A DNA stretch of 62,236 bases, filler included, from Hausera hauseri (Eukaryota): assembly GCA_046269625.1 (NCBI GenBank). It is 11 parts of 11 records of this genome, joined end to end, with 100 filler letters (N's around TTAATTAATTAA, not from the genome) between each part and the next. Parts side by side here need not be neighbours in the genome. Positions count along the whole stretch, not along the records: positions 41,447 to 45,933 come from JBJURY010557562.1; positions 46,034 to 51,703 come from JBJURY010209633.1; positions 51,804 to 56,468 come from JBJURY010484131.1; 8 more parts are not named here. One strand, 5' to 3'. This document shows, piece after piece, positions 11,161-59,767 of this stretch. The notes under the pieces are model-generated. The model saw only the letters and a list, made by a program, of their open reading frames with translations. It searched no databases and had not been told where the DNA came from. Made by a program: the position numbers and the translations under genes. The stretch's first letter is position 1. Every line of letters begins with the position of its first letter.

Positions 11161-11164
11161 TTAA

Positions 11165-13264: not shown

Positions 13265-13303
<39 letters not shown>

Positions 13304-14980: not shown

Positions 14981-15021
<41 letters not shown>

Positions 15022-15039
15022 TATCATCTGCACAAAACT

Positions 15040-27366: not shown

Positions 27367-27592
27367 AAATCCAATATTATTGATTTTTGCACACTTGCAC
27401 ATGTGCTGCACACTTGCACTGTGCACAAATCGATGCACCCTGATGTGCTCTATCGATTAGCGGCACCGTTGCTAGGCACTTTATGCATCGATAGTGTACA
27501 GTGTGCAATATCGATCGGCACATGTGCAAAATCGATTTACCGATTACCCGACGCCCCCTGGGGTGGGACAGAAAGCACATTTCCTCCCTACT
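27367..27592. mobile_element. Polinton/Maverick TIR (TGCAC family) ending in CTACT
   Basis: Close match to 56125-56400; ends CCCTACT at 27592. Confidence 0.8.
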
Positions 27593-29625: not shown

Positions 29626-29659
29626 GAGACATTGGTATCCTTGGGGTACATTAATCTAG

Positions 29660-30043
29660 TGGGGTTAAATTTCTTCAGGATTTTATCCCAACCACCTTGT
29701 TTAGTTACCCAATCTTTTGTTAGTTTATCCATGTAATTGGCTAAGTCCCTTACTATATGGTATAACTTGGCATAGACCTCTGTTTGGTTTTTGAAGCTAA
29801 CCACTATGCATCCTTGTGCCATTAGCAATCGGTTTTGATCACATTTCTTTAATAATCGTGTTAAGGCTTTATTTGAATTCCTTTCAGTTTATACTTCTGA
29901 AGCAATTTTGTAATTTGCGATGAGAAATTTCTCGCGGTTTCTATTATGGATTGCAATGAAATTGTTGTAATTGTTGGTATCTTTTTGAGTTGATTTGGAT
30001 TAGCTTTCTTGACTAATTGTTCTAGGAGTTCATGGGTTGTCAA
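29660..30043 (-). pseudogene. Bcl-2-like domain directly upstream of, and in frame with, the glycoprotein
   Basis: BH2 LANYMDKLTKDWVTKQGGWDKILKKF; weak BH1 LLKKCDQNRLLMAQG; weak BH3 LQSIIETARNFSSQ. Confidence 0.65.
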
Positions 30044-33175: not shown

Positions 33176-33858
33176 AGTAGGTAGAAGTGTCCTTTCCACC
33201 GCACTTCTCTGATTGTTCGGAAAACCACTTTTCCCCATCTGATTGGCTATTTCGATCATTTGACTAAAAATTTCGCAGGAAACCCCCGACCGAAAAGGAG
33301 GTCGAACAATGGACTTTGGACCAAGTAGTATCGATAGCGCGTGAAGAGGTAAGCAAAAATCAATATAGGTGAGATATACGAAAAATGTAAGGGAGAGGCG
33401 CTAGAAAAGGAAAAAGCAAAACAGGAAATGCGCCACGTATAACGCGAAACATGTTTCTAGCACTCAGAAAATTTGTACTAGCTGTAAATAGGTGTAGGCG
33501 AATCAAATGAACACGGTTGCAACGTTGTCTGACCATGGGAACATGGGAAAAAAGCCGATGAAAAAATTTCAAACGGGTGAAATTTCCCCTTGAAAAAGTC
33601 AGACGGTGGTGAAAATGGGTTGAGCACGTAGCCCATCGATAGTTGAGCATTTCATATTATAGCCGCCTCACGATCAGACAATTGTAAGTCAGTGAAATTC
33701 GTCGTTAAAAATCATCATCATCATCATTATTGTAAAAGTCAAGTTTTATGCTTTTTTTGCGTACAAGACTAGTAATCGATTATCGTATCGGAATTTCACT
33801 AAACACAAACCAAAAGCAGCAGCAACAACAAAATGAAACATATTTCACAAAGCGTTTT

Positions 33859-34230
33859 TCATAAAAGTGACTGTAATGTAAGCCATAGTTGGCAGTAATG
33901 TCCACATAGTATAGTCACTGGATGTTGATAATGAAGTCTATTATATTCAAAACGGTACGATGATAATGATTGTCTTTCAATTTGAGAAAGTAACGGTGAC
34001 GGATAGTAAAATCCAAGCGGATCGAATACTCTAATGAAGGTCGGATGGATGTACATAGCAATACAATATTCACCCGGCAACGATGAAGTGTGTGTATTGA
34101 CAATGAAGCCCCCAGTTTGTCGTAAATCACGCGGCACACAGTTTAGTCGAAACACTCCACGAAAATTTGCGTCAAAGAGCACTTTTCCGTAGTGACTGAG
34201 CTCAGTGGAGCTAAATGTAAAATGTGATTT
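33859..34230 (-). pseudogene. Adenain-like cysteine (maturation) protease; catalytic His lost
   Basis: FRGVF...FIVNTHTSSLPGEYC (normally GEHW)...VFDPLG...YN...Q...CGHYC. Confidence 0.85.
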
Positions 34231-34322
34231 AAGCATAATAGTAGTAATTTTAAAAATAAATTTCTTCATAGTACGACGAAGAAGACGAAGATTATGAAAA
34301 CGTGAGATACATGGGATTTTAT

Positions 34323-35475
34323 TTATTTTTCCACCTCGGCATTAAATACACCGTAAATGTGCATCACACTATATTGTTCCAACGCTTTAGCAAAGTGAAC
34401 CTTCAATCGTAGGTTTCCTTGCTGAGGTAGTTGAGTCTGTTCAACGTCATAATCCGAAGCCAGGACAAAGGTGAAGAAGGGATAGGTGGACTTGAACAAA
34501 TCCATCGATATGCCATTGTTGACAATTTTGTTCAGCAAACCCATGTTGCGCAAGATAGATTGCATATATGTGCAAACGTAATCACCGATCTCAAAATCCT
34601 GCTGGTATGTCTCAACGAAATCAGCATTCTTACCCAAACTGATGTAATTCATGTTGCTATGGGTAAACGTTTCCGAATCGGTGGTATAACTGCCCGTTTG
34701 TTGACGAGTCCTTTAAAATGTAACAAGCACAAATTTCGGCAATCGCATGTCACCAAACAGTGCATCTTTGTAAAACGTAGTTGAATCTTTGGGTATAGCA
34801 TAAAACACGAGTTCGGTGCGTTGTAATGGGTAACAGGCATTTTGTGTTTCAAAGCCCAATAGATGTCTTATGAACATAGATGGTTCCACCTGTACACGAC
34901 GTACGTATAATCGTGCCTCGATAATTTTCAGTATGGGTTTGAGATTTGCAACTGAGGTTTACAAACAAAAGACATTGTCGTTGCGTTTGAGCCGAATCAT
35001 GGCTTTAACACCAAACAGTAGGTATTTCGGATGATCGAAAAAGTCAAACTACAGCAGTCCACACATTGCAAGCGCTTTTGATTCTGCCACCCATGCCTGA
35101 CGGTTTGCTGCAGTGGCGTCATATCCGATTTTTTCATCAAATGAGTCGTTTTCGTATCTGCACTGGTTCAGTTAGTGGTTTAATATTGTATTGACTGCTG
35201 TTGCCTTCAATTTTGACGCTGTTTAGAGTCAGCGAAGCCTCATGCAACAGTGTGAGGAAAAGGTAATTGACCTGTGTGACAGTGTCTGTTTCAGCGAGAA
35301 CCGTTGATGCATCCTTTCAACAATGACTTTTGCATAGAGTAGCGTATCGTTCAAATCAAGATATTCATTGTCCGATGCCATAATGTTGAATTGAATGCTG
35401 CATTGTCAATAACAACTTGTGGCGCTGCTTTGTTAAATAAAAACAATGCAGATTTTGCAGTGCCATTTGACTATG
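34323..35475 (-). pseudogene. Maverick major capsid protein (PY, hexon-like), frameshifted with internal deletions
   Basis: AKSALFLF..AAPQVVI; IQFNI...EYLDLNDTLLY; KYLLFGVK..IRLKR; ARLYVRRV; GNLRLKVHFAKAL. Confidence 0.8.
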
Positions 35476-35481
35476 AATCAA

Positions 35482-35840
35482 TCAATCGAAAATTGTACAA
35501 CGACGACATTTGTTTATAGTTAAAAAGTTAGCTGATCTAACATGTTTTCTCAAGCCACTACCAGCGAATTGCTTTTTGACCGATCTCAAGACTCCCGGTG
35601 CAGCCTTTTTTATTTCTGTCAAGGCGTGTTTCTTCAATAATGGTAAAATCGATTTGTTTTCACATAGTACGTCCTGTGCTGTTTTTGCTGCTACGGCTAG
35701 AATACGCTTCAGTACCGGAAATACCAATGTACGTGCCAATGTACGCAACCATCCAAGCCATATTGTTTACCAGCGAAATACGGCAGTTCACCGCCGTGCT
35801 GAGGTTTACTGTAAATGGAAAAGATTTCAGAATTAATCAT
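35482..35840 (-). pseudogene. Maverick basic core protein (PZ-like)
   Basis: MINSEIFSIYSKPQHGGELPYFAGKQYG..(frameshift)WLRTLAR..FPVLK...FAGSG, with adenain-type xxGG/GxG sites. Confidence 0.7.
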
Positions 35841-36156
35841 GTTGTTCTTGCTTTCGACGGACAAGAACAACAACTGGTTGCGGTTCCGTAAGGATATTCA
35901 ATAAAGTAGCCTACGTCACATCTAAAATTGACTTCAACTTTGTTTATATATGTAGTTGCCACAGGCAGGTACATTGGATTATCGAGCTTGACAGTAACAT
36001 TGTCACCAGCAGTATACTTGCTGCTTTCCGGACAAATTGCACGGAGTAGCTATACACGTACTTCACCCACCAAAATGGCTTCGGTGACGTTCACATAAAT
36101 ATACATTTGACTTAGTCCAGTTTTCAGTTTGGGTTTAAATGCTGTAACATGTGCCG
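35840..36156 (-). pseudogene. Maverick minor capsid (penton-like) C-terminal part
   Basis: MYIYVNVTEAILVGE...LLRAI...NPMYLPV...INKVEV. Confidence 0.75.
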
Positions 36157-41446: not shown

Positions 41447-44400
41447 AAAAGTAATTCAGTTGTGCGGCTCCTATGCTTATTGCACATCCAAAGCACATAA
41501 TCCGCAACAGTGCCATGAAACAATGCAGCGGTATTATGGACACAAATGCAAAAGGATCCAATATTATTATTATGTCCGGGATGTGAGACTGTATGCGGTG
41601 CAAATTACATACAGTTCTATCATGATCACAAACATCATTTGAGTCATTTTGCATCAAAGTCCAAAAAGATTATCTTCAATGCGCAACATAATCTTGATGC
41701 ATCTGCTTCGCAGTATTCTGCTTCACAGTATGCCGAGGGGGCTGCAGCAGCAGCTGTGAAGCATATTATATAATTGAAACGCGCAGCAGCATCATGCGCA
41801 GCAGGATCAGGCGCAGCCGCATCAAGCGCAACCACATCAGGCACAGCGGCTCCACCAAAAAGTCAAAGGCAGCGGCCAGTTGATGCTGCAGTTTTAAAGA
41901 GCAAAGTTCGCAGATATGTCATTGCAGCAACTGGCCAAACAACCCTCAAAGTGTTCCTTTTACACACAGAAGAAGAAGCAATAGGTATTCTCCAGGACAA
42001 CATGGCGGAGCTCAAAGCCATTAAGGTTAATATGAAACTGGAGGCCACATACATCAATTTTGATGACGATGAATCCAAAAGGGCCTTCAAGACCCTAAAT
42101 AGGCCAATATTTTGAGCCACCAATATAGTAGAATGGCTGCATGAGCAACATAGGAAGCTTATCCATGAGGCTGGACTCTGTCAGCCGTCAAGAGACTGCG
42201 TATGCATGTGCACAAGTACTCCCTCATGCGGGGCAGCTCCTTATATACAGCTCCCTGAGTGGATTCGCAAAAAAGGCATGCATTAATGTCCTTAATGATG
42301 ACAACATGTGCTTCATGTATGCCATTCTATGTAAACTCGTACGGGATCAACATAATGCTTCACGAGTTTGGCTATATAAGGATGTGCAGCACAACTATGA
42401 TTTCCAATGTATTAAGTTTCCTACATTCTTGGATGAAGTCAAAAAATTTGGGCTACTCAATAATATATGAATCAATATCTTTGGATTGGATGAGGAGGAC
42501 AAATTCTATCCGCTACAAATATGTAATGCCGAATTGGAAGATCATAGGGATCTGCTCCTACTAGACGATGGAGAAAAGAAACATTACGTATGGGTCAAGA
42601 ACTTTGAGCGTCTAGTCAGATCCCAAATAACAAAGCATTAGCACGGAATCGAAATATGCAAAAGATAATTGTCCTATTTCAGTGGCAAGTTAGCTGTGGA
42701 GAAGCTGAAAGAGCACAAGATGTACTGCAACAATAATTATTGTATCATGCCAGAATTTACCAAGGAGGACTACATCGAATTCAAGGAATTCGTGAAGAAG
42801 ATCAAGGTCCCAATAGTCATATATTGCGACTTTGAAGCGATCCTGCGTCCATTTCAGAGTTGCAGCCCTAATCCCTAACACAGCAGCACGACGGCATACA
42901 AATATTATGAACTTTCATAATATTGTATGTATGCAAAAGGACTGAACAGTGAATCATATCTATTCAGGGTCCAAATGCAGCAGCACATTTTATGAAACGA
43001 CTTGAAGACATGGCTCATAGGCTTGGAGATATGTTGCAGCAGAATAAGAATAAAATGAGCATGTTGAAGAAGCAAGAAGAAGAATGGCACAGGTCAACAG
43101 CATGTTACTTGTGCGACAAGTCCTTCACAGTGGAGAATTGGAAAATCAGGGATTATTGCCATTTTACAGGCATATATCGAGGCGCAGCCTTCAACAATTG
43201 CAATCTATGTTGCTGAACATGTACATATGTGCCTGTAGTGTTCCATAATCTCAGTGGCTATGATTCCCATTTCATTGTTCGGGAACTGGGCAACATTGAA
43301 GGAAACATTGATGTAATACCCAACAGTGTAGAAAAATACATCAACTTTACCAAGCATGTTGGGAAAATCAGGCTTCGCTTCATAGACAATTTCCATTTCA
43401 TGTCGTCTTCACTTGACAGTTCAGTGAAGAACCTCCCTGCAGAAGAACTCAAGGAGACGAAACTGTTCTTTCTCACTGCATTTGGCCTAGTCAAATGGTA
43501 AGGCGTGTTTCCCTATGACTATATAACATTATGAGAAACACTGGATGAGACCTCATTGCCGGCCAAGAAGGATTTTTAAAATATCCTCTCTGATTGCAAT
43601 ATCAATGATATGGATTACCAGCATGCTCAAAATGTCTGGCATGCATTCATATGCCGAACATTAGGAGAATACAGCAACATATACCTAAATACTGACGTGT
43701 TGCTTCTGACGGATGTCTTTGAGAGTTTCAGGGATGAAGAGCAATGCTTTGGATCCAGCTCATTTTTTTACGGCTCCAGGGATGAGTTGGGCAGTAATTC
43801 TGAGATATACCGGTATTATGTTGCAGATCATAAAGGATTATGACATGATCCTCATGATCGAGAGGAATATGCCAGGCCATCCACCGGCATAGCGAGGCCA
43901 ACAACAAGTATATGGCCGAATATGACCCAACAAAGGCATCTTCATATATTGCCTACCTAGATGCCAACAACTTATATGGATGGGTATTGCCATATGATGA
44001 CTTCAAGTGGGTCAAGCATCCCGAAGACATCTCTATACTGGACCTGGATACCAGTGGAGATACGGACTACATGCTGGAGGTGGATATGGAATATCCACAT
44101 AGCATCCACACAAGGCATGAACAGCTGCCTTTCCTCCTTGAGAGCAAGCCTTTGCTCCATGGAAAACATCGAAAGCTGCTCTGCCATTTGGATAGTAGGG
44201 AGAAGTATGTAGTCCACTACATAAATCTCCAGCAAGCGGTCAGGAATGGACTCCGCATTACGAAGATCCATCGGGCCCTGCAGTTCAGCCAGTCCATGTG
44301 GCTGCAGCCGTACATAGATCTCAATACGAAGCTGAGAGCTAATGTCAAAACGATTTCGAAAAGGATCAATTTAAACTGTATAATAACAGCGTTTTTGGCA

Positions 44401-45134
44401 AGACGATGGAGAATATCCGCAACAGGATTAACATCGATGTAGTCTCTGAGTAGAAGCGAGCAAAGAAGCTCATTGTCAAGCCCAACTTCCACAGCAGCAC
44501 CATTTATACGGAGAACTTGGTCAGCATCAATATGCGGAAAACATCCTTGCAATTCAACAAGCCAATATATGTGGGTATGTCAATACTAGACCTGTCAAAG
44601 ACCCTGATGTACATATTCCACTATGACATCATAGTCCACGCATTCCAGTCAATAAAACTGATGTACATGGATACTGATAGTTTCATCTATCAGATCCATA
44701 CTGAGTACATTTATGAAGACTTTGCTAAATTATCTCAGAATATGGATACGTCTGACTATCCGAAGGAGCATCCGAATTATTGAGTTAACAAGAAAGTCCT
44801 TGGGAAATTCAAAGACGAGGTGAGTGGGGCAGTCATCTCGAGATTTGTGGCTCTTGGGTCCCAAATGTATGCCCTTGATGTATGTGGCCAGATGAAAAAG
44901 AGAGCCAGGGGCGTTCAAAGGGCTACCTTGGCCAAGAAGATCGGCTTCGATGACTATGTGAGAGTTTTTCAGGAGCAAACTCATATCATATCAGAGATGC
45001 GAAGGATCCAGTCTAGGGCTCATGACACCGAGGCAGTAACAGTGCAGAAGAAAAGCCTAGATAGGATGGATGACAAAAGGCAGATCCTGGGTGATGGAAT
45101 AAGCACACTACCTCACGAGCATATGACACTGTAA
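41447..45134 (+). pseudogene. Protein-primed family B DNA polymerase (Maverick/adintovirus type, with endonuclease VII-like insert), multiply disrupted
   Basis: Exonuclease IYCDFEA, FHNLSGYDSHF, RFID; CYLC...RDYCHFTG.YRGAA..NCNL; polymerase YLDANNLYGW, KLYNNSVFGKTMEN, YMDTDSF, KKVLGKFKDE, DDKR. Confidence 0.92.
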
Positions 45135-45239
45135 ATATTTAAATACCGTTATTCTTTGTTAATACATTTTATATCAAAATATTATGTTGTCTTCTCGATA
45201 AAGTAATGTGGGACATAGGATAATAATGGAACAATTTTA

Positions 45240-45907
45240 ATGGACTTAGGCGTTTTCGGACATGGGGAATCGAATTCCGTTGTCAGATTTTTCGAAAAGT
45301 TCGAAATTCCATATTTGGGTCAAAAATGTTCCTATTTCGAATATTCGACTCGATATTCAAGATCTCCATACTCGGTTTCATATCTGTCCCTGCTAAATAT
45401 AATATCGATTTGTGATTCCTTAGGGAAAAATAATACCTATGGGAAGTCTGCCACAGTTTCACTTCGAGTCGATATTATTCGAAATTCACTCGATCGATTG
45501 AAATTATAATCACACATTCGTATAGTGCATCGTATTTGAGTTCAAACATACCCGGCCACACGTGGTAATTATCAATATTGGAATTATCGGAAAACCGATA
45601 TTATTGATTTTTGCACACTTGCACTTGTGTTGCGCATCTGCACAGTGCATATCAAAATGCGTATTGGTATGCAATATCGAATAGCACTTTGTCCCAATCG
45701 ATTTGATCAATTGTGCAATGTTTGTGTTATCGATTTGTGAAATGTGCAAAAATGTGCATAGGAACGGTTCCTAACGGCACCGTCGCATAGCACATTACCG
45801 ATCGATAGTGCTCCATGTGCACCATCGACTGGCACATGTGCCAATTGATTTATCGATTCGCAAACCCCCCGGAGGAGGTAGTGCAGATTTCCCATTTTCT
45901 AGCTACT
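45240..45907. mobile_element. Subterminal block plus TIR of the PolB element, ending in CTACT
   Basis: GAATCGA.TTCC...AGATTTTTCGAA.AGTTCGAA block shared with 55360-55460; TGCAC-rich TIR; CTACT ends at 45907. Confidence 0.8.
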
Positions 45908-46236
45908 GTGGTGGCCTTTCTTATTGACGATAGNNNNNNNNNNNNNNNNNNNNNNNNNNNNNNNNNNNNNNNNNNNNTTAATTAATTAANNNNNNNNNNN
46001 NNNNNNNNNNNNNNNNNNNNNNNNNNNNNNNNNGATTTTGTGGTGAGCGTGATTGAATATATTTATAATTATGCATGTAATTTGAACGAAACGTCTGCTT
46101 CGATGGGCGCAATTCTTTTTAATTGTGTAACTTTCTGTTTCCATTTGCATGATGAAAACAATAACGACTGTGTTGATATTTCCTTGGCAGGTGCGTTGAA
46201 GAAATTTGCTTCCTTTTTGCTAGTTGATCAACCGTC

Positions 46237-47672
46237 ATGCCTAGACATTGTTTAAATAAGCCGGACAGTTTCTGCTACGTTTGTGGTTCTTTTACAACAA
46301 AATCGCAACGTCGTAAAATTACCGCAGATCTTAAAAAGATTTACAAGTTATACTTCGGCTGTCCATTAGGTGACCAGGATAAGCCTTGGGCACCGCATGT
46401 AGTATGTACCAGTTGTTCTAATGGACTGCGTGACTGGTTAAATAAGCGTAAGGCAGCGATGGCATTTGCTATACCCATGATATGGAGAGAGCCCCGAGAC
46501 CATCACAGTGATTGCTATTTTTGTTGTGTTAAGACAAGTGGGTTCTCCTCTAAAAGCAAGCACAAAATAGCATATCCCAACCTGGATTCTGCAATTAGAC
46601 CTGTCCCCCATGATGACTCTTTACCGATCCCTCATCCTCCATCAGATGGACTCTCATCTGTGCATGACGAATACGATGAAGATTGTGGTGAAGGCTCCAA
46701 CTCGGATTCATCTGATACTGACTATGTGGCTGATGAAGATTCAGAACCAGAGGTATTTACTCAGGAAGAACTGAATGATCTCGTTCGGGACTTAAGTCTA
46801 TCCAAAGACAAAGCGGAGCTACTTGCTTCTAGACTGAAGCAGAAGCACTTGCTTGCAAAAGGTGGTCAAGCATGAAAGTACTTCTTCAAGCTATCCAGTA
46901 CAATATTCATCAGTGGAACATCTGTGGTGACCTGAAAGTCATTGGCATGCTGATGGGAATGCAGGGAGGGTTCACCAAATACTGCTGTTTTTTATGCCTG
47001 TGGGACAGTCGTGCTAAGGCAGATCATTATGTCAAGCGTGATTGGGAGGAAAGAAGTACATATAACCCGGGAACAAGCAGTGTCAAGTTCCTTCCTTTGG
47101 TTGATCCACATAAAATATTTCTTCCTCCTCTCCATATCAAGCTAGGTTTGATGAAAAATCTGGTAAAGCAGATGGGTAAAACAAACTCACCAGGTTTCCA
47201 GTATCTTGTACAGAAGTTCCCCAGCATCAGCGCTGCAAAAATGAAGGAGGGAATCTTCGTAGGTCCTCAGATCAAATCTGTTTTGCGCGATGAAGTTTTC
47301 ACAAATTCTCTCTCAGAGGTAGAGCTCCAAGCATGGACAGCATTCAAATGGGTGTGTGAAAACTTCCTGGGTAACCAGAGGTTGCCTTCATACAGGGAAG
47401 AGGTCCAGGTTCTTCTTGATGCCTACCAAAAACTGAATTGTAATATGTCACTGAAGATACATTTCTTGCATTCACACCTCGACTTTTTTCCCGAAAATCT
47501 CGGCATGGTGAGTGACGAGCAGGGAGAACGTTTCCACCAAGACATTCAGTTGATGGAGCGACGCTACCAGGGTTTCTGGAATGCGAGCATGATGGCAGAC
47601 TATTGTTGGATGTTGTATCGTGACAATCCAGACACAGTTTATGACAGACAATCATCGGCCAAACATTTTTAA
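46237..47672 (+). mobile_element. Chapaev3 (CMC) transposase with an internal deletion at ~46865
   Basis: CLNKPDSFCYVCG, GDQDKPWAPH, WREP.DH..DCYFC; ICGDLKV, CFLCLWDSR, LPPLHIKLGL, SDEQGERFHQD. Confidence 0.85.
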
Positions 47673-47948
47673 TGATATATATTGTGTTATAATATGCAAA
47701 ATAACTTTCATTTCTATTTTGTACATTTTTGTTTTATCTTCCATGATTAATTACACTTAGAGTTAAACAATTTCACAATTTAATCATTTTTCAAACTGTG
47801 CAAATCGTACAGTCGGACACTGTAATGTTAATAAAAGTTAATTATGTCATAAATCAAAAACTTGACGTGATGGAATAAAAATGAATACATATCTGAAATC
47901 AGCATAAAAAATTGGTTTAGAAAATGGTACTCGCACTTCTGATGATTA

Positions 47949-50900
47949 CTTCTTCTTCTTCTTCTTCTTCTATCCAGACTCTTGAGCTGCTTGCTCTTTA
48001 AGAGCCAATGCCAGATTGAAAAAGTGACTGGTCCTCATTAGTTGGTCCCGTCCGCTGTATAATGTGTTTGATATTGTTGGCTGGTGTGGGAGTAACTTGG
48101 TCCTTAATTGAGTCAGTTGTGGGCATTGTAAAAGAAAGTGCTCTACTGTTTCATAAGGGTGGCTGCAATGTCTGCATAGTGGAGGATGTGTAGGGTCTAT
48201 TCTGTTTAAGTGCATGTTTAATTTAATGTGTCCTGTTCTTAGTTGAAAGATGGTGCTCTGGTCTTTGCGAGGGAGGAAGTTGATGCTGTCTTGTTTTTTT
48301 GGTGTTGTCATCTCTCTGTATAGTGATCTTCCTGTTTTTCCTAGTGCCCATTCATTTAGCCACTCTTCTCTAAAATTATTTCTAAGGATTTGTCTGATGG
48401 TGTTGTAGCTAGTGGGTCTGTTTATCTGCTCCATGTTTGCGCCTATCTTGGCTAACTTGTCTGCTTTTTCATTTCCTCTTATCCCTATGTGTCCTGGGAT
48501 CCACTGGAGGGTGATGGTGATGTTGTAGGAATTCATTATTTTGTTGATAGTGTGAGCAAGGGTGCCTAATTCTTTCATGTTAGATGTGCTGTGTGATAAA
48601 GATTGAAGAGTTGACTGTGAGTCTGTAAAGATTACTATGTTAGCCTGGAGGTCCTTTGTCTGCGTGTATGCTCTGTCAATTGCTTCTAGTGCTATCTGTA
48701 TGGCTTCAATTTCCGCCTGAAAATTTGAGCAGTATTCACCACAGGGTGCACTTATCTCATCAGTACTACCATCAGGGAAGGTCAGGAAGGCGCCTAGACC
48801 AGCATTTATTGTGGCTTTGAAGGCTGATCCATCGGTGTAAACTAGTGTAGATGATGTGGGGTAACTGTCTATAGTTTCTAGTGCTCCTACTTTTAAATCT
48901 AAAGGGTTGGAATTTTTGGTTAAGTCTGGGTTCATAAGGTGAGTTTTGATGTCTGGGCGTTTGTAGCTTTCACCAGGTGGGGGGATGGTGTATCTTGTAA
49001 TGCTTTCTCTGTTTTCTGGAAGGTGGTGTTTAGTTTTTAAGTCATCAGCGCAGTGCAGGAGTGTTTTTCGCTTCTTTGTTGTTTTTTTTCTGGGCTTTTC
49101 TACTAGTTGTTTATTTGGATGGTCTCGCTCCAGTCTTTCATACCTTTCCACTGCTTCAAGGACTGCTCTTCTGCGCCTATGGCCTAGAGGTTCGATGTTG
49201 GCGTCAATTTCACAAGCTGCAGTTGGGGTGGTTCTTAGAGCTCCACAAATAAGGCGTAGGGCTTGATTTTGGACTTTATCAAGGGTTTCTTGTTGGTTTT
49301 TACTAGCCACAGCCTGCAGTGGAAGGCAGTTGTCCAGCACTGACCTAATATAGCCAACGTATAACTGCCTTAGTGTTTTCTTTTCGGCTCCCCAGGATGT
49401 ACTTGCTAAATGTTTTAAGATGTTTAGTCTTCTGGAGGCTTTTTCTTTTAGGGATGTGATGAAGTGATTCAGGGATAGTTTTCTGTCTAGTTTTACTCCC
49501 AAATAGACTGGGTTATCATCTTTCTTTAAAGGGACTGAGTCTAATTTTAGGTTGTATTGTCTGTTCGCAATTTTTGGGCTGTTGCTAAAAATACTGTATA
49601 CAGTCTTTTCCTTGTTGATGTTAAGTTTTCAGAGTTTGTTGTAGGTGGAAATTGTTGCTAGGGCTTGATTTAGTTTTATTCTAGTAAGAACAGGGTACTT
49701 TTCGGTAGTCCAGATGAGAAGGTCGTCTGTGTATAGGGCTTTGTTTACTGTAATTAAGTCAGGGAGGTCATTGATGAAGATAAGGAAAAGGGTGCAGCTG
49801 AGGGAAGATCCTTGGGGGAGTCCTTCTTCAAGCGTTTTTTTCGATGAGAGGGCACCTTCAAAGCTGGTTCGCACTGTCCTGTTTTGTAGGAAGGCTTTTA
49901 TCCAGTTGTACATTTTGCCATGTATGCCCATTTTTCTCATCTTCAGGAAGAGGCCCATGCGCCATACTCTGTCATACGCCTGTTGAAGGTCAATGAACAC
50001 AGCTGTAGTGTGCTTCTCATCTTAAAATCCTTCAACTGTTTCTTGGATAAATCGGAAAAGGTGGTCTTCAGTCCTACTGGCTTTTCTGAAACCTGCCTGG
50101 GCATTGTTTAGAAGATGGGAATTTTCTAGCCACCAATACAACCTATTATTAATCATCCTTTCTGCCAGCTTTCCTAGATTAGAGGTTAAGGAGATGGGGC
50201 GATAGCTTTTAGGGTCATCTGCAGGTTTGTCTTTTTTTAGGATTGGCTTTAGATGGGCTTCTTTCCATTCTGCTGGCAATTTTCCTGTTGACCAAGTTAG
50301 GTTTATAAATTTTAGTATAGCAGCTTTTGCTAAAGGTCCTAATCCCTGAATCATCTCATTGGTGATTTTGTCTGGCCCTGGTGATTTTTTGTTCTTGAGT
50401 TTCTTTAGTGCGCTATCTAATTCAGTTTCTGTGAAAGGTGTATCAAACAATCTTACACTTGCTGTTGAACTTTTTTCATGTAGGCGTAATATTTGTTTGA
50501 AAGCTTTGTCAATTTTTTTCTTGGGTTGTGATTTGTTTGTTTTTGTGAAGTGTTTATTGAAGATCTCTGCCTTTTTGGTGTTTTCAATAATTTTCTTTGT
50601 ACCTGTATTCATTGGTCTTGTGTGAGTTCTTTTGTTGCTGCCTGCAATGTTATGGATGAGGTTCCATGCTTTTTTCCCATCTTTACGAAGGTCTAGTTCT
50701 TCACATGACTGGATCCACCTGGCTTTTTTGTTGGTTTTTATTGTATGTCTGATGCGGGCTGTGAGTTTGTTGTATTTTGTTCTATTTTCTTTAAGTGGGT
50801 TCTTCTCTAGTGTTGTCCTAGCTTTATTTCTTTCCTTTACTAAGTTTTTTAGTTCAGGTGTCCAATAGGGGGTGTACTTCTTTCTACTGCCTCTAGGGAT

Positions 50901-51703
50901 GTTTTTCTTTGCTGCTTCTAGTATTCCTGTGGTGATTTTTTTGTAATAGGTACTGGGATCAGTTTCTTCAATGTCTGTTAGTAACTTGTCTGTGTCGAGT
51001 GCGTATGTTGTCCAGTTGGTTTTTTTTATAATTCCAGAAGGTTCGCTTGGGTTGTTTGGGTCTTCCTGACCTTCCAATACTGACAAGTAGAGGTTTGTGA
51101 TCACTGCCCACATTATCAAGCACAGAAAGTGTGCACATGTCTAATAGATCAGTTGATGCAAGTGTTAGGTCTGGTCTGCTAGTAGTGTTGTGTGCTCTGT
51201 GCAAAAATGTAGGTGGGGAGTTTTTATTCTGTAGTAGGTGGAGGTTTGAGGAGTTTATTATGTCTTCAACTTCTTTGCCTCTCTCGTTTTGTCTGGCATA
51301 GCCTAGAATGGGTAAATGGGCATTAAAGTCTCCAGCTATGATTGTTTTGGTATAGTTTGGTTCAGAGATGTTTATGTTTTCTTTAGAAGAAGGGGGGCAG
51401 TAAATGTTTGTGATGTGGTATCTTGTTCCTCCCTTCCAAAGAAGTATTTCTTGTTTGTCTATGTTTGTGTTGCTGTTGTTCTCTTTAACCTCTGCGTGTA
51501 TATCGTTTCTAATGAGTGTCATTATTCCTTGGCATTTATTGCATCTGCATTTGTATTGCGTGTATCCTGTGATATGTATGTCTTTCTTAGGTAATAGTGT
51601 TTCTTGTAGAAGTGCTATGTGTATGTCGTGGTTTTTCAGTATAAATTCAAGTTCTTGTTCTGGAGGCCTAATACGTTAAGCTGTAGTATGTTGAGGTGGG
51701 AAT
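47949..51703 (-). mobile_element. I-group LINE (Ingi/Nimb-like): APE endonuclease, RT, RNase H, CCHC; (GAA)n tail
   Basis: AGDFNAH, PDLT, GSDH; KSPGPD, YRPISLTS, GLPQGS, YTDD; VYTDGS...QAEI...FTDSQS...WIPGHIGIRGNEKAD; CRHC...HFLLQC; only a few frameshifts. Confidence 0.92.
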
Positions 51704-52367
51704 NNNNNNNNNNNNNNNNNNNNNNNNNNNNNNNNNNNNNNNNNNNNTTAATTAATTAANNNNNNNNNNNNNNNNNNNNNNNNNNNNNNNNNNNNNNNNN
51801 NNNGTGATGTAACTGATAATTAAACGAATACATTGTTCTTTAACATAACATAAATGACAAATTGGAAATCCGATATTCGTAAAATATTGGTTGAAAAAAG
51901 AAAAAATTTTATAAAATTTCAAAAAGGGGAAATTGAAGAAGTGCTGAATGACGTAGCACGTGGAAGTCCGTATTGCATAATTTTAACTTTTTCTGCAAAT
52001 ATTTATTAATCAGGATGAAAATTTGTAGAACCTGTAAACTTGCAAAAACCTGAGTAGCAATAAGGTAATAACCATTGTAACAAAATTGACAAAAATACAA
52101 TAATAAACAAATTAATAACAACAATTCTACACTAACAATATGCATCGTGTGACTTTATTTCAGCACCATCCGCACCGGTCGCATCAAAACAAACTAGGCC
52201 GTCCTAAGTTGTATTCAATAAAAGACAACAGTATGGACGTTTCGGAACGTGTTTTAATTTACTTCTAGAAAACCGTGAATCCTACTCCACAATCCGATTG
52301 TTTCAGAAGAATATATTTTTCATTTAAAAGCATAACGATTTATATAAAATATCACTCTCAATCTCAC

Positions 52368-52493
52368 CTTACCAGCAAACTTTGACTGTACGTCATGTAC
52401 AACTTCCGGAGCAAGAAAGGCAGGTGATCCCAACGTATCTTGAAGAAAAATATCATCACCAGTGAACTGGCAACTAACGCCAAAATCAATCAA
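52368..52493 (-). CDS. Exon of a CaMKK-like Ser/Thr kinase (DFG to APE)
   Basis: LIDFGVSCQFTGDDIFLQDTLGSPAFLAPEVVHDVQSKFAGK; 126 nt, CAG/GTGAG bounded. Confidence 0.8.
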
Positions 52494-52812
52494 CTGAAAG
52501 TAAATACATATAAAGAAACATTTTACAAAATCAGAAAAATAAGAACAAGTTTCTGTGAGTTGAAATGATAAATGACGTTCCATGCGAATCAGTTTGTTTA
52601 CAAAGGTATGCAAACTGATAATCAATAACAGAAACATTTATTTGTCAAAACATTGTTCAACAGTGCCTCAAAGAGCACCGAGGGACTGATAGCAGCACTG
52701 GAGTGTTATTCATAAAAACACTTAAATTCAGTGGAAAATATCTTCCGTATACTTTTATGAAGTACTCAATTGAGGGTGTTGTTACTGTTCAGTTAAATGA
52801 AACAATCCACTA

Positions 52813-54750
52813 TTAAATTAGAGACTTATCACACAAGTGCCATAATGCTGCTTTGCGCCATTCTTGTTCTTGTATCCAAGACATGCTTATGTCGTACTTA
52901 TGCTGCTGCAACATATCGCCAAGCCTATGAGCCATGTCTTCAAGTCTCTTCATGAAATATGCTGTTGCACCTGGACCCCTGAATAAATATAGTTCACTGT
53001 CCAATCCTTTGGCATACATACAATACGATGAGTGTTCGTGATATTGGTATGCCGTTGTACTGCTATGTTGAGGACTGGGACTGCATGTGTGAACTGGCCT
53101 GAGAATGGCCTCAAAGTCGCAATAGATGACAATTGGGACCTTAATCTTATTTTCGAATTCCTTAAATTCGATATAGTTTTCTTTGAGAAATTCCGGCCTT
53201 ACACAATAATTGTTGTTACAGTATATCGTGTGCTCTTTAAGCCTGTCCATGGTCTCTTCATCACTGAAATGGGGCAAGCATCGTTTGCATATTTCAATTC
53301 CGTGTTTATAATTTGTTATTTGGGATCTGACTAGACGCTCAAAATTCTTTATCCAAACATAATGTTTCTTATCAATATCGTCTAGTAAGAGCATATCCCT
53401 ATGATCTTCCAATTTAGCATCACATATTTGCAAGGGGTAAAATTTGTCCTTCTCATCCAATTTAAAGATATTGATGGATATTTTGTTGATGCGGCTAAAC
53501 TTCTTCATTTCATCTATGGGTGGAGGGAATGTGATACACCGAAAGTCGTAGTTGTGTTGGAGATCACTGTATAGCCAAATTCTATCTGCTGCAAGTTTTT
53601 GATCCCGCACGACTTTACATAAAATAGCATACATGAAGAACTTGTTGTCACTATTATGAACATTGATGCAAGCATTTTTCTGCCGAATCCATTCCGGAAG
53701 CTGTATATATGAACTGCCTCGCCTGGGGGAGTATCTGTGTACATATATAAGCAGTCTCTTGATGGTTGACAGAGCCCATCTACTCTTCTTATCCTGGCTC
53801 TCATCAGCTTCACGGATCAGCTTCGTATGCTCTTCATGCAACCATTCAGGTATATTCGTGTTTTACAATATGGGCCTATTTTTGGTCTTGAAGTTCCTAT
53901 TTGATTCTTCACATCGACATTGACGCATGTGGCCTCAAGTTTCATATTAATCTTAAGGGCCGCGAGCTCAGTCATATTGTCCTGGGGGATCCACATTGCT
54001 TCTTTCTTTGCATATTCCAGGAACTCCTTGATGGTTGTTTGCCCAGCTGCATCAATGACATATTTGCGGATTTTATTCTTTAATGAAGCAGCATCAACTG
54101 GCCGCTGTCTTTGGCTTTTTGGCTGAGCCGCTATGCCTGTTGACCCTGAGGCATCTGATGGATCTGATGGGCGTTTTATTCCTGCGGACTGTACTGTGGA
54201 CTGTACTGCGGATTGTACTGTGGACTGTACTGTGGACTGTACTGCGGACAGTGCAACTGGTCTATGCTCATTAAATATGATCTTTTTGGACTTTGATGCA
54301 AAGTTAGTCAGATGATGCTTATGATCTTCATAGAACTGTATGTATTCGCCATCACATACAGTCTCACATCCTGGGCATATATAATAAAGGATCCGATTGA
54401 ATTTGTGGCCATAATAGATCCTCATGGTATTATGGAAATTCTCGGGGTTATGTATTGTACATGTGCAATACATATATGAATTGCACCTTTTGTTTTCTTT
54501 TGACACGATATACGTTGTTGACATATTGTTATAGAATATTTCTTTTTTCGACTTGACGAAGGAAATCACGTGTTGTTTATGTACATTAGTGAATTCCTCG
54601 TATCATATCCTGCACACTACTTCATATGTAAGGCATATATAGTATTGGATTCTGTTGAATATATGGCCATAATATTTCATTATGGTACTATGGCAGGTTT
54701 CTAGCTCATGAATTTGAGACAGACATTCTTGGTACAGTTTGCACATCTAA
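52813..54750 (-). pseudogene. N-terminal half of a second Maverick-type pPolB, 3'-truncated
   Basis: Homologous to 41447-43130 (PKSQRQRPVDAA.LK, GSSYIQLPEWI, HYVWIKNFERLV, IYCDFEAIL, FMKRLEDMAHRLGDMLQQ). Confidence 0.9.
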
Positions 54751-55339
54751 AACAAAAGCAATTATTTGATGAAGACAAAATAAGAAAAAACTTACTATTC
54801 TCGGAAGTTATTTTTGGAAGTGAATTTGGAAATAATGCAAAATATAGCTATGTCAGCATGACTTTCTAATTTTGATAATTGATGTAGTAAAACAAAACAC
54901 GTAAGGAAATAATTTCTTTTAATGGTGGGATAAATTAGGCACTTCATATTGTTGTTGTATAGTCAATATAATGTGCATTTGTTTTAATGCATCAAATGCA
55001 TAAACTTTCAATAGTATGTTTTTCATGCGTTTGTTTTAATGCACAAATGATTTAAAATATCACGCGCGCCAGATTTGAATAGGTTTTCATACATGCCGAA
55101 TCGATTGGCACCATCATATTCTTCGAATAATGCACGCTTCATCGAATATTCGAGTTCGAATCGATATTTCCTCAAGTTCGAATATTCTTTTCCATCATCT
55201 AACATCATATTCCGATTCACCACACGACTTCCTATCCCGCCTCGCTATTACATTTATCGATTTCCGCTTCACTGCACTTTAAATTCACATTTTGCTTAAT
55301 TCGACATACTGATTTTGTATCTATATAGTACATTTTCAT

Positions 55340-56432
55340 GAAATAATTTTTATGCACACGGGGGTTTTCATATATGACGAATCGATTCCCACTATTAGAT
55401 TTTTCGAATAGTTCGAACTTCGATTTTCGAACTCGGAAATTTTCGAATTTTCGACTTAATATTCGAGTTCCCAATATTGGATTTCCTATTTTTCCCCGCT
55501 TAATGTTGCATCGAATTTTGCTTCCTTACCACTTAAAAACATCGAAAATATACCCAATTTGCTCTTTAGATCGATATTAATCAATAATTAATCAATAAAT
55601 TTAAATTCTAACTGCACATTCATATACTACATCATGTTTCCTTCTGATTGCACCCGGTCACGAGTGCTAATCATCCATATTGGAAATATCGGAAATTCGA
55701 TATTGATTTTCGCACACTTGCACACATGTTTTTGCACTACACACCACATATTAAGGTGCATCTCGATGTGCTCTATCTACCTGCACTTGATCCCGATAAA
55801 TTCCACCATTCCTACGCTGCACAACTCAAAAAGTGCTCAAAGTGAAAAAGTGCTCCGACAACCCGATCAATAAACACACCAATCTCGATTAGTACACTAT
55901 TCGATACTACATCAAGTACTTCACACGCGAGTATGTGCCATATTCATATCATTGATTTAAAATTTATATCGGGAAGGTCTGTGGCGGTTCTGTCCCACTT
56001 GCGAATTATTCAAAAACTAATCAATCGATTTAAATTCTAATTGCACATTCACACACACCATCATGTGCACTACCCATTGCACCCGGTCACGAGTGCTAAT
56101 CAGCACTTTTGGACAATTCAGAAATCCAATATTATTGATGTTTGCACACTTGCACATGTGCTGCACACTTGCACTTGCACCAATCGATGTGCACTGATGT
56201 ATACTATCGATTAGCACTTTGTCCCGATCGATTCGATCCATAGTGCACTGTTCAGCTATCGATTTGTGAAAAGTGCAAAAATGTGCGTAGCAACGGCGCC
56301 TAGCGGCACCGTTGCTAGGCACTTTTTAGATCGATAGTGCACATCGCAATATCGATTCGCACACCCACTGATGGGGCAGAACCGCCATTTCAACACTACT
56401 TGCTGAGGCAGAACCACCATTTATATCTTACT
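55340..56432. mobile_element. Subterminal block and two tandem TIR copies of the PolB element; CTACT at 56400 and a second short end at 56432
   Basis: TTTAAATTCTAA.TGCACATTCA...TTGCACCCGGTCACGAGTGCTAATCA at ~55600 and ~56030; GGCAGAACC.CCATTT...TACT occurs twice. Confidence 0.8.
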
Positions 56433-58426
56433 ATTAATTCTCATTCATTTGCCCTTAATTTCACTAAANNNNNNNNNNNNNNNNNNNNNNNNNNNNNNNN
56501 NNNNNNNNNNNNTTAATTAATTAANNNNNNNNNNNNNNNNNNNNNNNNNNNNNNNNNNNNNNNNNNNNAAGGTGGGGAATATTGTACAAGTACCATAAAT
56601 GAGGGATTTTACTGTAAATATGGGTCATTTTTATAACAAATAATCGGAGAGACATACAAAATATAATGATGATTAATAATATGAGAAAATTAAATTTTGT
56701 TTCAATCTTTCTGGAATTAGATCTTTTCCATATAGAATGATCAGCAAAAAATCAGATATCAGTTACTGCAAATAGCCGACACAAATATCCGATTTTTTGC
56801 TGATCACCCGTAGGTTCAGTCACTCAATTTATTTTATTTTTAAGGTAGTTTAAAATTTAAAATCTGGCTACTTTAAGTAAAATAAATGAATTTGAGTAAA
56901 TTGGAAATTTATGATATAACAATTAATTTAAATAATAAAATTTAACATTGTTCAACACGTACCTGATTACTTATAGAAAATAAAAATATCCTAATTTTAG
57001 ATGTATTTTTGGTTTCATATTGGGGAACCACGTATGCATGAAGTCTGTATATATTCGTAATGAAATGAACTTTGACCAATTTCAAGAATCGTTTATTTAT
57101 AGCTACATTTATCCTTGAAAACTAATAGACAAGGCTATTTATGTTGAACATTACAGTTAAATAGCAAACAGCAAGTACCAGAGGTAAGTACACTTTAGTA
57201 AATACATAAAATCATTAGTCTCTGATTTGCTCGGATATTTTTGGTTTTAAACCGCTCATAAATGTCTACCATTGGTTTTCAAAAATTACACAGATCACAG
57301 ACTTTATCACAAGCATAAACCGTCATATTCTATATTATTAAAATTATTAATGAACAACTTTTATGAATTTAGAAAACAATAATAATTCGATGCATTTCCC
57401 AATTTCCTTATATTATATACATAATGTAGTAAATATATTATCCATAATATACAAAATTCTCAATTATTAATAAACTTCTTTTCATATCACACCGTGAAAA
57501 TTTCTCGCCTCAGCAAATTCCTACAGCTAACAGCAAACGGCAACAAACTATTACAACTGCAACAGAAAAAAAAATCAATAATAATTTCTACTCCTAAATT
57601 ATCGATCGGTAATTTTCCACTCTTATCTGAAATACTTACGTAATTAGGTAAAGTTCTGTGAAAAATGTGTTGGCTATTGAAATCAAATTAACTCACAAAT
57701 CATTACACCGGTGTTACTTTAAAACTATGTGTGTTTGAGACGACGAAAGACAAAACAGAAAACAACGACATTAAACAAAAATAATAAATTTATAAAAACT
57801 AAATCGTATTCCATCGTGTATGATTTGTTTCGAATTTTTTTTCTCCTGGCTTTTACTAATATTTCTTTAGTACACGCTACGATAAATATTTGTACAAGTC
57901 ATACATTACAAAATACATTTGCCATCCTTTGAAACAAGAAAGCAAGTAAATCTATGCAAAACACAACAGTGAAATAAATTCCAAAATCCATAAAAAAAAA
58001 ATATTTCTTTCCAAAACAAAACAGCAACAAACCCTGCAATTTGATTGATGGTCATTACACGTCAAATTGATTTCGTTTTTTTAAATAATAAAGTAGAATA
58101 ATGTCACAAAACTACCATTGGAGAATTTCTAATTGCAAGATAATAATAATAATAAACATTGATAATTATAGACAATTCAAAAACAACAAAAAAACAATTC
58201 ATACTTTTGCATGGTATATAAAGTTTATGATCTTCATTTCGTAATAAAAAAACAGTAGCAGAATAAAGAACCTCAGATAACGTATATTGAATCGTATTGA
58301 GTTGGTTTGAATAATTCCGCATGTAATGCGTTGAAAACAACAAATGGAAAAACAGAATATTGAACAACCGCGCACGAATAAGTAACCGGAAAACAAGCCT
58401 AATGAATGACTCAAGAACAACGTCAA

Positions 58427-59026
58427 TTATTTACTCGGCTTGGATGTCCAAACCAAACACGAAGAATCCCACGACCCGGTAGCAATACCGACTCCACTAG
58501 GACTGACGGAAACACAACTAACACGTCCATCATGCGCCGACATAATACCAACGCGTTCTTCACGCAAAATATCCCAAACGCGACAATTATAATCGTCATA
58601 ACAGGCAATTAACAACCGACCGGATTTACTCAAACTGACACTCGTACTACCGCACGTGATATAGTCATCCGTATAAACGGCAATCGACTGATCGGCTCGC
58701 AGATCCCACAGACGACACGTTCCGTCATCGGACGACGTTACGAAACCGTAATTGTCTTTCGGGAAAAATTCCACACCGTTTATGTCTTCGGTATGTCCTT
58801 CGAATATTTGACAACATCTCGTCATTCTCGTGTCCCAAATTCGACAGGTTTTGTCGGTGGAAACCGACACGAACATTTCGGATTTTGTCGGAGACAACGA
58901 AATTGCGGTAACATCGTTCTGATGACCGATAAATTGTGATAATGGTTTTCCGCCAGCAGAAATATCCCATAGAATACAGGTTTTATCACCAGATGACGAA
59001 ATAATCGCTGAGTCATTAACGAATTC
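58427..59026 (-). CDS. Heterotrimeric G-protein beta subunit, C-terminal ~200 aa (divergent; 5' part missing)
   Basis: SSSGDKTCILWD, GHQNDV, FEGHTEDIN, SDDGTCRLWDLRADQ, ITCGSTSVSLSKSGRLL, YDDYNC.VWD, HDGRVSC, ATGSWDS. Confidence 0.9.
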   Translation of the reverse strand, partial: EFVNDSAIISSSGDKTCILWDISAGGKPLSQFIGHQNDVTAISLSPTKSEMFVSVSTDKTCRIWDTRMTRCCQIFEGHTEDINGVEFFPKDNYGFVTSSDDGTCRLWDLRADQSIAVYTDDYITCGSTSVSLSKSGRLLIACYDDYNCRVWDILREERVGIMSAHDGRVSCVSVSPSGVGIATGSWDSSCLVWTSKPSK

Positions 59027-59767
59027 AAATGTGAAAATTCAAATGTGAAATAAACAAAATAAATATTGAAACAAATTATTTTATAACATTATCAAAAAAA
59101 AATAATTATTTTGCCATGATTCCGTTAATTTTCTATTAAAATGAAATTTAATTTTTTCAAAACAATCATGGCGCCATTGCAAAAATTTTTTTCATATTCA
59201 CAATCAGCATCAAAAATAGTATATTACTGAATAGATGGCAACTAAAAAGCCCACTACCAGCGGGGTAAGTTCCCTTGTAAGTTTTAATTGAATAGAGTTA
59301 TGCTAAGTACTTATTTGACGACAATTATTTTCGAAAAGATGTTTGTCACATAGTTGAACTTAAAAGAGACAATTTAAGACTATTAGAAAACCGTATCCTG
59401 ATTTAGCGCAGTTACTATTGAACACCTAAAACTGCGTGGCCAATTTAAATATGCTTAGGAATATGCTACCAGATTTTGAAGTTTCATGATTTGAACAGTT
59501 TTTCCAGAAGTAGTATTTGGATTTTACCTATCAGTGAAGATGAATTAATGAATTACTGCTATGTGGATGTTATCAAAGAATGACTTTTGTTTAAATAATA
59601 TTGGTCTGTGTTCAAATTTTCACCAAAACATTCTTCAACAAGAAAATTTTCCATTATTTAGGTATTTCGTTGTTTTTCTGTTGGGGAAAGTTAAAAGAAA
59701 ATTCCAATGAGCAAAGAAACCAGTAAATATTACATGATTCATCAATGTCATTGTTATGTGTAACAGG

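Follow-up and report, generated by a model that had tools for sequence, protein, structure and literature searches.

Does a polymerase gene lying directly beside Polinton-type ends in Hausera hauseri belong to a full-size Polinton or to a much shorter element? Polintons are 13–25 kb long and carry integrase, ATPase, protease, and two capsid genes (according to excerpts of PMC10748475), and their tips have (AG)3 and (AGT)2 motifs (according to excerpts of PMC8097293). A sequence-only reading had instead proposed a unit of about 6.5 kb with the layout TIR-polB-TIR, acting as a linear-plasmid-like replicon or a genome segment. We analyzed the window, a stretch of 62,236 nt from assembly GCA_046269625.1 in which 11 contigs are joined by N44-TTAATTAATTAA-N44 spacers. 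We lean, by a little over even chances, toward a long-lived polB-only Polinton derivative that replicates itself and borrows an integrase.

Two polymerase genes beside related ends

The genes lie on contig 8 (41447–45933) and contig 10 (51804–56468), and related ends occur on other contigs of the window:

41447..45134, + strand: decayed Polinton-type pPolB gene of contig 8, truncated on its 5′ side where the contig begins; parts are a candidate terminal-protein and vOTU region, an EndoVII-like insert, an exonuclease, and a polymerase
45135..45225, unstranded: 91-bp gene-free spacer from the polB stop to the end block (contig 8)
45226..45907, unstranded: palindrome-rich end block of contig 8 (inferred right TIR), terminus 5′-AGTAGCTAGAAAATGG read from outside
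52820..54746, − strand: another pPolB copy (contig 10), 5′ half only, broken off at ~52820; parts are two N-terminal Cys/His repeats, a low-complexity linker, and a terminal-protein/vOTU region
54747..54795, − strand: candidate 49-nt GT-AG intron abutting the polB ATG upstream (contig 10)
54796..55069, unstranded: upstream spacer of contig 10, presumed promoter and leader, within the repeat family
55070..56400, unstranded: end block of contig 10 (inferred left TIR), terminus 5′-AGTAGTGTTGAAATGG; inner edge at ~55070 approximate
55082–55129/55363–55410 and 55576–55724/56005–56156: internal repeats in the contig 10 end block
56401..56432, unstranded: unexplained degenerate repeat of the terminal ~32 bp (contig 10)
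15526..15796, unstranded: third same-family end (contig 3), inside a gypsy integrase reading frame
27367..27592, unstranded: fourth same-family end (contig 5), with an internal deletion
33176..36156, − strand: terminal part of another, capsid-bearing Polinton on contig 6, with its terminus 5′-AGTAGGTAGAA at 33176
33892–34233 and 34329–35102, − strand: contig 6 genes for a decayed protease and the major capsid protein, respectively, with a weak minor-capsid match

The polB stop of contig 8 at 45134 lies 773 bp from the AGTAG terminus at 45907, and the first polB ATG of contig 10 at 54746 lies 1,654 bp from the terminus at 56400, in agreement with earlier estimates of ~770 bp and ~1.65 kb. The homology read between the two contigs was likewise confirmed, both for pPolB (74% over 1,680 bp) and for the subterminal block (74% over 368 bp, E = 3e-51; 68% over 475 bp, E = 3e-38). 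The claim that only end sequence separates the contig 10 polB start from its terminus held beyond ~55070 but failed for the ~320 bp of 54747–55070, which the copies do not share; integrase, ATPase, capsid, and protease references found no match in that interval. The end blocks of contigs 8 and 10 face opposite ways relative to polB.

No contig among the 11 carries both ends. The contig 10 copy is one-ended, its polB giving way to single-copy host DNA at ~52820, and is lightly decayed; the contig 8 copy is decayed, with at least 13 in-frame stops and four frameshifts where its pieces align to P0017. Part lengths summed from the two copies give ~6.36 kb, and the unit is likely a TIR-polB-TIR element of ~6.4–7 kb whose integrase, ATPase, and capsid genes have been lost. 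Here, “TIR” is an inferred label for matching ends that sit on separate contigs without a readable TSD of the 5–8 bp typical of Polintons.

Matching AGTAG ends sharing 0.2–0.7 kb occur on four of the 11 contigs (3, 5, 8, and 10). Their termini are 78–82% alike in all six pairs, and on each of the four contigs the end is joined to host or other-transposon DNA. A gapped end motif was found three times in the window and in none of 100 shuffles, and the terminal 318 nt of contig 8 fold more stably than expected (z = −3.4, with 0 of 100 shuffles equally stable). The final 55 bp of contig 10 are atypical.

A Polinton-type polymerase that diverged under selection

The contig 8 pPolB matched Pfam DNA_pol_B_2 (PF03175) at E = 5e-6, at the cut-off, and Endonuclease_7 at E = 0.003, below it; the PolB profile had no sequence match in the PDB. 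From an FGKTMEN motif, we take the window PolB to be probably of the Beta class. Protein-primed, with a terminal-protein and a vOTU domain, it is of the kind that characterizes Polintons; both window copies are broken. The vOTU region is a candidate assignment from motifs and from PMC11071308, in which a Cys/His pair is proposed to release the terminal-protein domain by cleavage; in our alignment the candidate Cys is present in 62 of 63 rows and the His in all 63. The predicted model of a relative, P0133 (54% to the window’s polB piece; pLDDT 92–98 in most blocks of residues 141–390), resembles Y-family polymerase chains over ~115 columns (best E = 8e-4) in a little-finger-like terminal-protein fold, a likeness reported for the terminal-protein domain of Polinton pPolBs (PMC11071308). 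The same model matches Drosophila-associated adintovirus 2 (E = 8e-33).

In a PolB protein search, 6,755 of the 8,000 proteins scored reached E ≤ 1e-60. The closest named proteins come from insects and spiders (50–57%), P0016 and P0017 being the nearest insect relatives, and the closest relatives on the head side, P0132–P0134 (55–66%), lie on contigs of 1,037, 2,812, and 3,095 bp. Between the polB genes of contigs 8 and 10, 106 of 333 third codon positions differ vs. 40 of 334 second positions (p = 4e-10), which points to selection before decay. Having diverged under selection, the two copies are different subfamilies, and a shared layout is therefore not a necessity. The candidate intron uses the sole donor-like and the sole acceptor-like site in 54701–55100; judged by sequence, the copies look nuclear and spliced.

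Abundance of the two junctions

In sequencing run X1, 84,040 contig pieces span contig 10 gap-free from the polB head to the terminus. Summed depth, which is not copy number, leaps from 0–6 to 3e5 in the bin from 52808 and stays at 6,278–858,839 in 26 of 26 bins across 52808–56343, with 0–6 in three flanking bins; it is 62,000–87,000 over 54712–55119 and only 570 in the last bin. This gap-free cover makes the head-to-end junction a high-copy family trait. Of the words, 41% occur in run X1; the run may stem from the source species and so does not count as an independent genome. Contig 8 is covered by 61,497 pieces with depth in 30 of 30 bins. At its 91-bp tail junction, depth drops to 8,452, a level that the neighboring polB or end-block sequence might account for; with 150-bp bins, this junction is therefore not provably common.

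A close relative with the tail-side junction

Among 21 metagenome loci, one (L012) is a close relative. It carries an unbroken 336-codon polB 3′ end (72% nucleotide identity to contig 8), then one 110-codon acidic ORF, and then the same end block, which like that of contig 10 has an internal repeat (~140 bp); core genes had no match in the 1,486 bp 3′ of its polB. Divergence at third positions is strong, with the frame intact throughout. The small ORF recurs in three more records, one at 88% identity, and the atlas gave no usable match for it. A Pfam match of this ORF to rve_2 was below threshold (E = 0.004) and was not counted.

Contig 8 and L012 group with SH-aLRT 100 in a quick tree of 84 rows (among them 35 further loci and 47 rank-selected proteins), in which the pair has no sister of known layout and from which contig 10 is absent. 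Third-position differences from contig 8 number 106 of 333 for contig 10 vs. 165 of 332 for L012 (p = 3e-6), and four-fold-site differences number 23 of 54 vs. 42 of 69 (p = 0.048), a comparison that assumes similar rates in different polB halves, contig 10 and L012 sharing no polB overlap. On this measure, divergence would place contig 10 within the contig 8 and L012 group. Because contig 8 is nearer to contig 10 than to L012, the simplest reading is a single TIR-polB-TIR unit, and one loss of the other genes accounts for all three copies. The proposed ~6.5-kb unit is thus favored by the high-copy head-to-end junction, the tail-to-end junction of L012, and the divergence grouping, although no single molecule shows it whole.

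Alternative arrangements

The copies might instead derive from full-size Polintons of two subfamilies in which polB sits beside one end in opposite orientations. We consider this unlikely, though the copies are indeed distinct subfamilies and gene order varies widely among relatives. Across distant relatives of at least 8 kb, 38 of 41 loci have another core gene and three have other ORFs, with no polB-only unit in any of the 41 (layouts were counted in 81 of 100 loci, leaving out 10 duplicates and nine chance loci). Both end-adjacent orientations also occur together with more core genes, polB being head-at-end in L010 and tail-at-end in L060. However, two such subfamilies would require a clean one-gene inversion between copies that are 74% alike, either once in the line of contig 10 or twice, in contig 8 and in L012. 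Moreover, no piece of integrase, ATPase, capsid, or protease is attached to the AGTAG end block at any of five ends (two of them too short to tell), and no rve integrase lies between polB and the end on either side, the far side of each copy being missing.

IMG/VR alignments gave 11 and 24 distant loci, and a search there for the window’s C-terminal peptide patterns gave nothing. GTDB contigs yielded 37 loci, mostly at 39–56%, and the AGTAG end block is absent from all 37. Inverted repeats flanking polB in L030 were rejected as mariner-like pieces by eye.

Rather more doubtful is an abundant family of full-size elements with the polB head at the left end, from which contig 8 and L012 arose by separate chance internal deletions as TIR-polB-TIR-shaped dead ends. 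High copy has been shown for the head-at-end junction and not for the tail junction, and integrase directly follows polB in the insect-type relatives L042–L044 and L061 (47–55%). The post-stop spacers are also unequal (91 bp in contig 8 vs. about 600 bp in L012) and cannot be aligned, with 206 of 500 shuffles reaching the score of their best likeness, so the tail junctions may be independent. Dead ends, however, sit poorly with the unbroken 336-codon frame of L012 and with a small ORF found in three further records, and two independent deletions just past the stop would be a coincidence unless retention of polB was favored, which leads back to a polB-only derivative.

About as doubtful is a multipartite Polinton-like virus, arranged as in bidnaviruses and Vesanto virus. 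Its self-replicating ~6.4-kb polB segment would have reached thousands of integrated copies; genes for capsid, ATPase, and integrase would sit on further segments linked to it solely by the AGTAG tip and a brief common motif, and all segments would rely on shared proteins for integration and packaging. The unit does match bidnavirus VD1 in size (6.5 kb; PMC4061559) and is near the Vesanto segments (3.3–5.8 kb; PMC8363768). Behind a tip that agrees with that of contig 8 at 10 of 11 bases, contig 6 has tblastn matches to capsid (E = 9e-21) and protease (E = 8e-8) references, and it shares with the contig 8 end, in the same orientation, a 13-mer that was spotted post hoc and occurs in 0 of 1,744 overlapping background windows. 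These two likenesses weakly favor the earlier genome-segment claim, but contig 6 shows the capsid-protease-end order of full-size elements such as L010, and its end block has no significant overall homology to the five ends (scores as high arise in 72, 32, 8, 9, and 69 of 200 shuffles). Same-end segments with integrase, ATPase, or capsid were found neither in the window nor in IMG/VR, where the gapped motif had no match and a 16-mer had nine chance matches without likeness to the window. From polB to the ends there is likewise no gene for a parvovirus-type NS1 helicase or a single-jelly-roll capsid. By its tip and 13-mer, contig 6 is a candidate helper family of the polB unit.

A proposed cycle and its significance

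For the preferred polB-only derivative, the host nucleus would transcribe and splice polB. The protein would act as its own primer, given an N-terminal part predicted to fold like the terminal-protein domain of Polinton pPolBs, which the candidate vOTU Cys/His pair may then free. It would replicate an excised linear copy starting at the TIR tips, and the rve integrase of a full-size family would recognize the AGTAG tips and insert the products; such an intracellular cycle would need no capsid. Retained polB would allow autonomous amplification off the chromosome and would thereby account for the selection seen on the reading frame as well as for the copy number. With polB kept and the rest seemingly lost, the element would be independent in replication and dependent in integration.

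Our search of main texts in the open literature found polB-less derivatives and no polB-only Polinton family; the known reduced Polintons kept their ends and lost the polymerase. If true, a polB-only family would be an integrase-parasitizing replicator, a nuclear and integrating parallel to the step from Polinton to linear plasmid or bidnavirus segment. It would also be a natural minimal test of the unproven idea that a pPolB with its fused terminal protein alone replicates a Polinton. Surveys that require polB to be linked to integrase (as described in excerpts of PMC10748475) would miss such families, which may explain some lone “uncharacterized” PolB genes in arthropod annotations.

Comparison with known systems

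The element resembles Polintons/Mavericks (animal adintoviruses) in its pPolB with a terminal-protein and vOTU region, its long AGT/AG-tipped end blocks, and its host integration. It differs from them in the ~6.4 kb of the inferred unit and in having no integrase, ATPase, protease, or capsid gene in the stretch that separates polB from the end on either side. Mobile Polinton derivatives of butterflies (10.1101/2025.02.07.637071, in the part available) are likewise reduced, with Polinton ends and a need for full-size helpers; as described there, they lost polB, whereas in the present unit polB is what remains and the other genes are seemingly gone.

Bidnavirus BmBDV VD1 and the Drosophila Vesanto segments are also linear, 3–6.5 kb long, and bounded by terminal repeats, which are related among Vesanto segments (PMC8363768), and some of these units carry a Polinton-derived PolB (PMC4061559, PMC8363768). 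Unlike the probable Beta-class PolB of the present unit, theirs is of the Alpha class with an inactivated vOTU (PMC11071296, PMC11071308). VD1 in addition encodes a helicase and a capsid protein, and bidnaviruses and Vesanto are free ssDNA viruses rather than high-copy integrated repeats.

Fungal linear plasmids of the pGKL1 type are capsid-less Polinton descendants that use a pPolB to copy themselves from their terminal repeats (PMC11071308), and the suggested linear-plasmid-like replicon holds up in this mode of replication alone. Those plasmids are cytoplasmic, extrachromosomal, and unintegrated; the present element has its ends joined to host or transposon DNA, is integrated in many copies, and carries a candidate spliceosomal intron.

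Results

The window is made up of 11 short contigs and spacers, in which fragments of gypsy, non-LTR and DDE transposons lie beside animal host genes. Two contigs carry a Polinton-type protein-primed DNA polymerase B gene (polB) next to an end block with an AGTAG tip, and the anatomy of polB and its end blocks is real and unusual:

Contig 8, contig start to stop at 45134: polB, decayed
Contig 8, 91 bp between the stop and the end block: spacer
Contig 8, 682 bp finishing at 45907: end block
Contig 10, ATG at 54746, strand opposite to contig 8 polB: 5′ half of polB
Contig 10, finishing at 56400: end block of the same family as that of contig 8

Identity between the two polB copies is 74% over 1,680 bp; between their end blocks it is 74% across one alignment of 368 bp and 68% across another of 475 bp. 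Relative to polB, the end block is inverted between the contigs, the pattern expected of a TIR pair. Contigs 3 and 5 start within the same end block, which runs out to the same AGTAG tip, so that the family's end is present in 4 of the 11 contigs. The polB-to-terminus distances proposed in the sequence-only reading were borne out (773 bp in contig 8; 1,654 bp in contig 10). A point absent from that reading is that the contig 10 copy is broken at ∼52820, beyond which the sequence is host DNA, single-copy and including a kinase exon; the whole element is therefore seen in neither contig.

Several observations accompany these features. At 56401-56432, the terminal ∼32 bp recur as a degenerate tandem repeat, which could be the tip of an older copy or a slip during insertion. 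A candidate GT-AG intron of 49 nt (54747-54795), which would be very short by animal standards, runs right up to the polB ATG. A gypsy element occurs in two copies 85–87% alike (4130-7326 and 16511-19393), and it is in the contig 3 copy that an end of the polB family is inserted. Contig 5 holds a broken Monjiviricetes-type fusion glycoprotein gene (28305-29888, minus strand; Pfam E=1e-8 and 7e-12), probably retroelement cargo or an RNA-virus relic. Contig 2 (7445-15425) is dense in CA runs and in tandem repeats of 5, 28, 46/56, and 51 bp; it is unlike the others and possibly from another organism. An intronless stretch of ∼200 codons from a G-protein beta subunit gene lies at 58427-59038 (minus strand; Pfam E=3e-66).

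Contig pieces from a public sequencing run, X1 (contigs only, with 41% of sampled words), were mapped to contigs 8 and 10 at 80% likeness. Contig 8 drew 61,497 pieces, with depth in all 30 bins, and 52400-56468 drew 84,040. Along the latter, summed depth was 6, 2, and 0 in the three flank bins, 6,278 to 858,839 in the next 26, and 570 in the last. Summed depth is not a copy number, but set beside a flank of ∼5 it still indicates very many copies, likely in the thousands. The spacer between the contig 10 ATG and the end block lies at repeat depth (62,000–87,000), so the end-to-head junction is a family trait and no single-copy accident. At the contig 8 tail junction, depth is 8,452, which neighboring sequence could supply, the 91-bp junction being smaller than a bin.

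The tail junction was compared with L012 (JACCDN010132290.1; 2,494 bp), one of 21 metagenome loci and 72% identical to contig 8, with which it groups in a quick tree (SH-aLRT 100). Its polB frame is unbroken over 336 codons. From ∼600 bp past the polB stop, it shows patchy end-block matches, the strongest being 71% identical along 162 bp (E=8e-12 in a small test set), and its DNA downstream of polB matched no core gene. The post-stop spacers of contig 8 and L012 aligned no better than shuffles. L012 has one further feature:

L012:1228-1557, minus strand, opposite polB, in the interval from polB to the end block: small acidic ORF of 110 codons containing a CxxC motif

This ORF was found again in three further records, is absent from the window, and had no usable match in Pfam or Atlas.

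Between contigs 10 and 8, codon positions differ by 20% (first), 12% (second), and 32% (third), a pattern of divergence under selection (p=4e-10) that makes the two copies separate subfamilies; between L012 and contig 8, the values are 22%, 13%, and 50%. The comparison thus places contig 10 closer to contig 8 than L012 is (third positions, p=3e-6; four-fold sites, p=0.048), subject to the gene halves compared being different ones. The end blocks agree, alignments being long between contigs 8 and 10 and patchy with L012. If the tail-to-end junction predates the contig 8/10 split, both junctions belong to contig 10's line, barring a polB inversion there. Adding the parts (1,654 + 276 + 3,657 + 773) gives a unit of ∼6.36 kb, or >7 kb with an L012-type tail.

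The polB of the window is probably Beta class. A read-through piece of the contig 8 gene matches DNA_pol_B_2 at cut-off and Endonuclease_7 weakly; homologues have 1,100–1,400 aa, and those with names belong to insects, spiders, and one sea anemone. Candidate vOTU residues are conserved among 63 aligned rows (Cys in 62, His in 63). At the N terminus, a Cys/His-rich repeat of ∼75 aa without a Pfam match occurs twice (54495-54746 and 54300-54470, minus strand). P0133, a naturally occurring protein closely related to the N-terminal half (527 aa; mean pLDDT 78), has one copy of this repeat. Best PDB matches of its model were Y-family polymerases (∼115 columns, best E=8e-4), and the top viral match was Drosophila-associated adintovirus 2 (E=8e-33). 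PMC11071308 reports such Y-family likeness for the Polinton pPolB terminal-protein domain and models primer, release protease, and polymerase in one polypeptide; on that model, polB by itself might in principle suffice to replicate a linear unit.

Discussion

The sequence-only reading proposed a short TIR-polB-TIR unit. Both of its junctions are seen, but on separate copies, and no single contig holds the whole element; the balance of evidence leans toward the short unit. We lean, somewhat beyond an even chance, toward a polB-only Polinton derivative. Its polB would be transcribed in the nucleus, with the candidate intron ahead of the ATG; the element would replicate itself through protein priming and be inserted by an integrase borrowed from elsewhere.

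Full-size Polinton subfamilies with polB inverted are an unlikely but appreciable alternative. Full-size relatives L010 and L060 have polB at an end in opposite orientations, and among 41 related loci of at least 8 kb, 38 carry another core gene and none is polB-only. These loci are distant (∼30–55% protein identity) and indicate the usual layout, not that of the window family. A single loss of the other genes accounts for the contig 8, contig 10, and L012 copies, whereas inversion is the rarer event. An odd layout occurs in L069 (11212-20999), L070, and L076, contigs assigned to a bacterial MAG but likely host contaminants: behind a Polinton polB, integrase is present twice, within an inverted repeat of ∼1.9 kb (98% in L069).

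Chance deletions from a full-size family are quite improbable; they, the multipartite reading, and the polB-only derivative all give the TIR-polB-TIR shape in at least some copies. Contig 6 bears on the multipartite reading:

Contig 6, 33176-36156: terminus of another Polinton family, one that has capsid genes (protease, major capsid, and a weak minor-capsid hit)

Its tip, at 33176, lies inside a DDE-type transposase frame, and the protease and capsid genes behind it are decayed. The tips of contigs 6 and 8 share 10 of their first 11 bases, and one 13-mer occurs, in the same orientation, both in contig 6 and in the best-conserved stretch of the terminus of the polB family (0 of 1,744 overlapping background windows). 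That the family is a segment of a multipartite virus is very doubtful. The tip and 13-mer are a weak sign of such segments, and the contig 6 end block is otherwise unrelated. Contig 6 is consistent with a distinct family of full size, and that family's integrase might serve both.

Known systems offer comparisons: Polinton size and gene set (PMC10748475), end motifs (PMC8097293), and Alpha and Beta PolB classes (PMC8502044). No polB-only Polinton family was found in the openly available papers searched; a curated nonautonomous family of this shape may exist, for example in Repbase. The converse, mobile Polintons without polB, has been described (10.1101/2025.02.07.637071), and the polB-only derivative may be set beside bidnaviruses (PMC4061559, PMC11071296) and Vesanto virus (PMC8363768).
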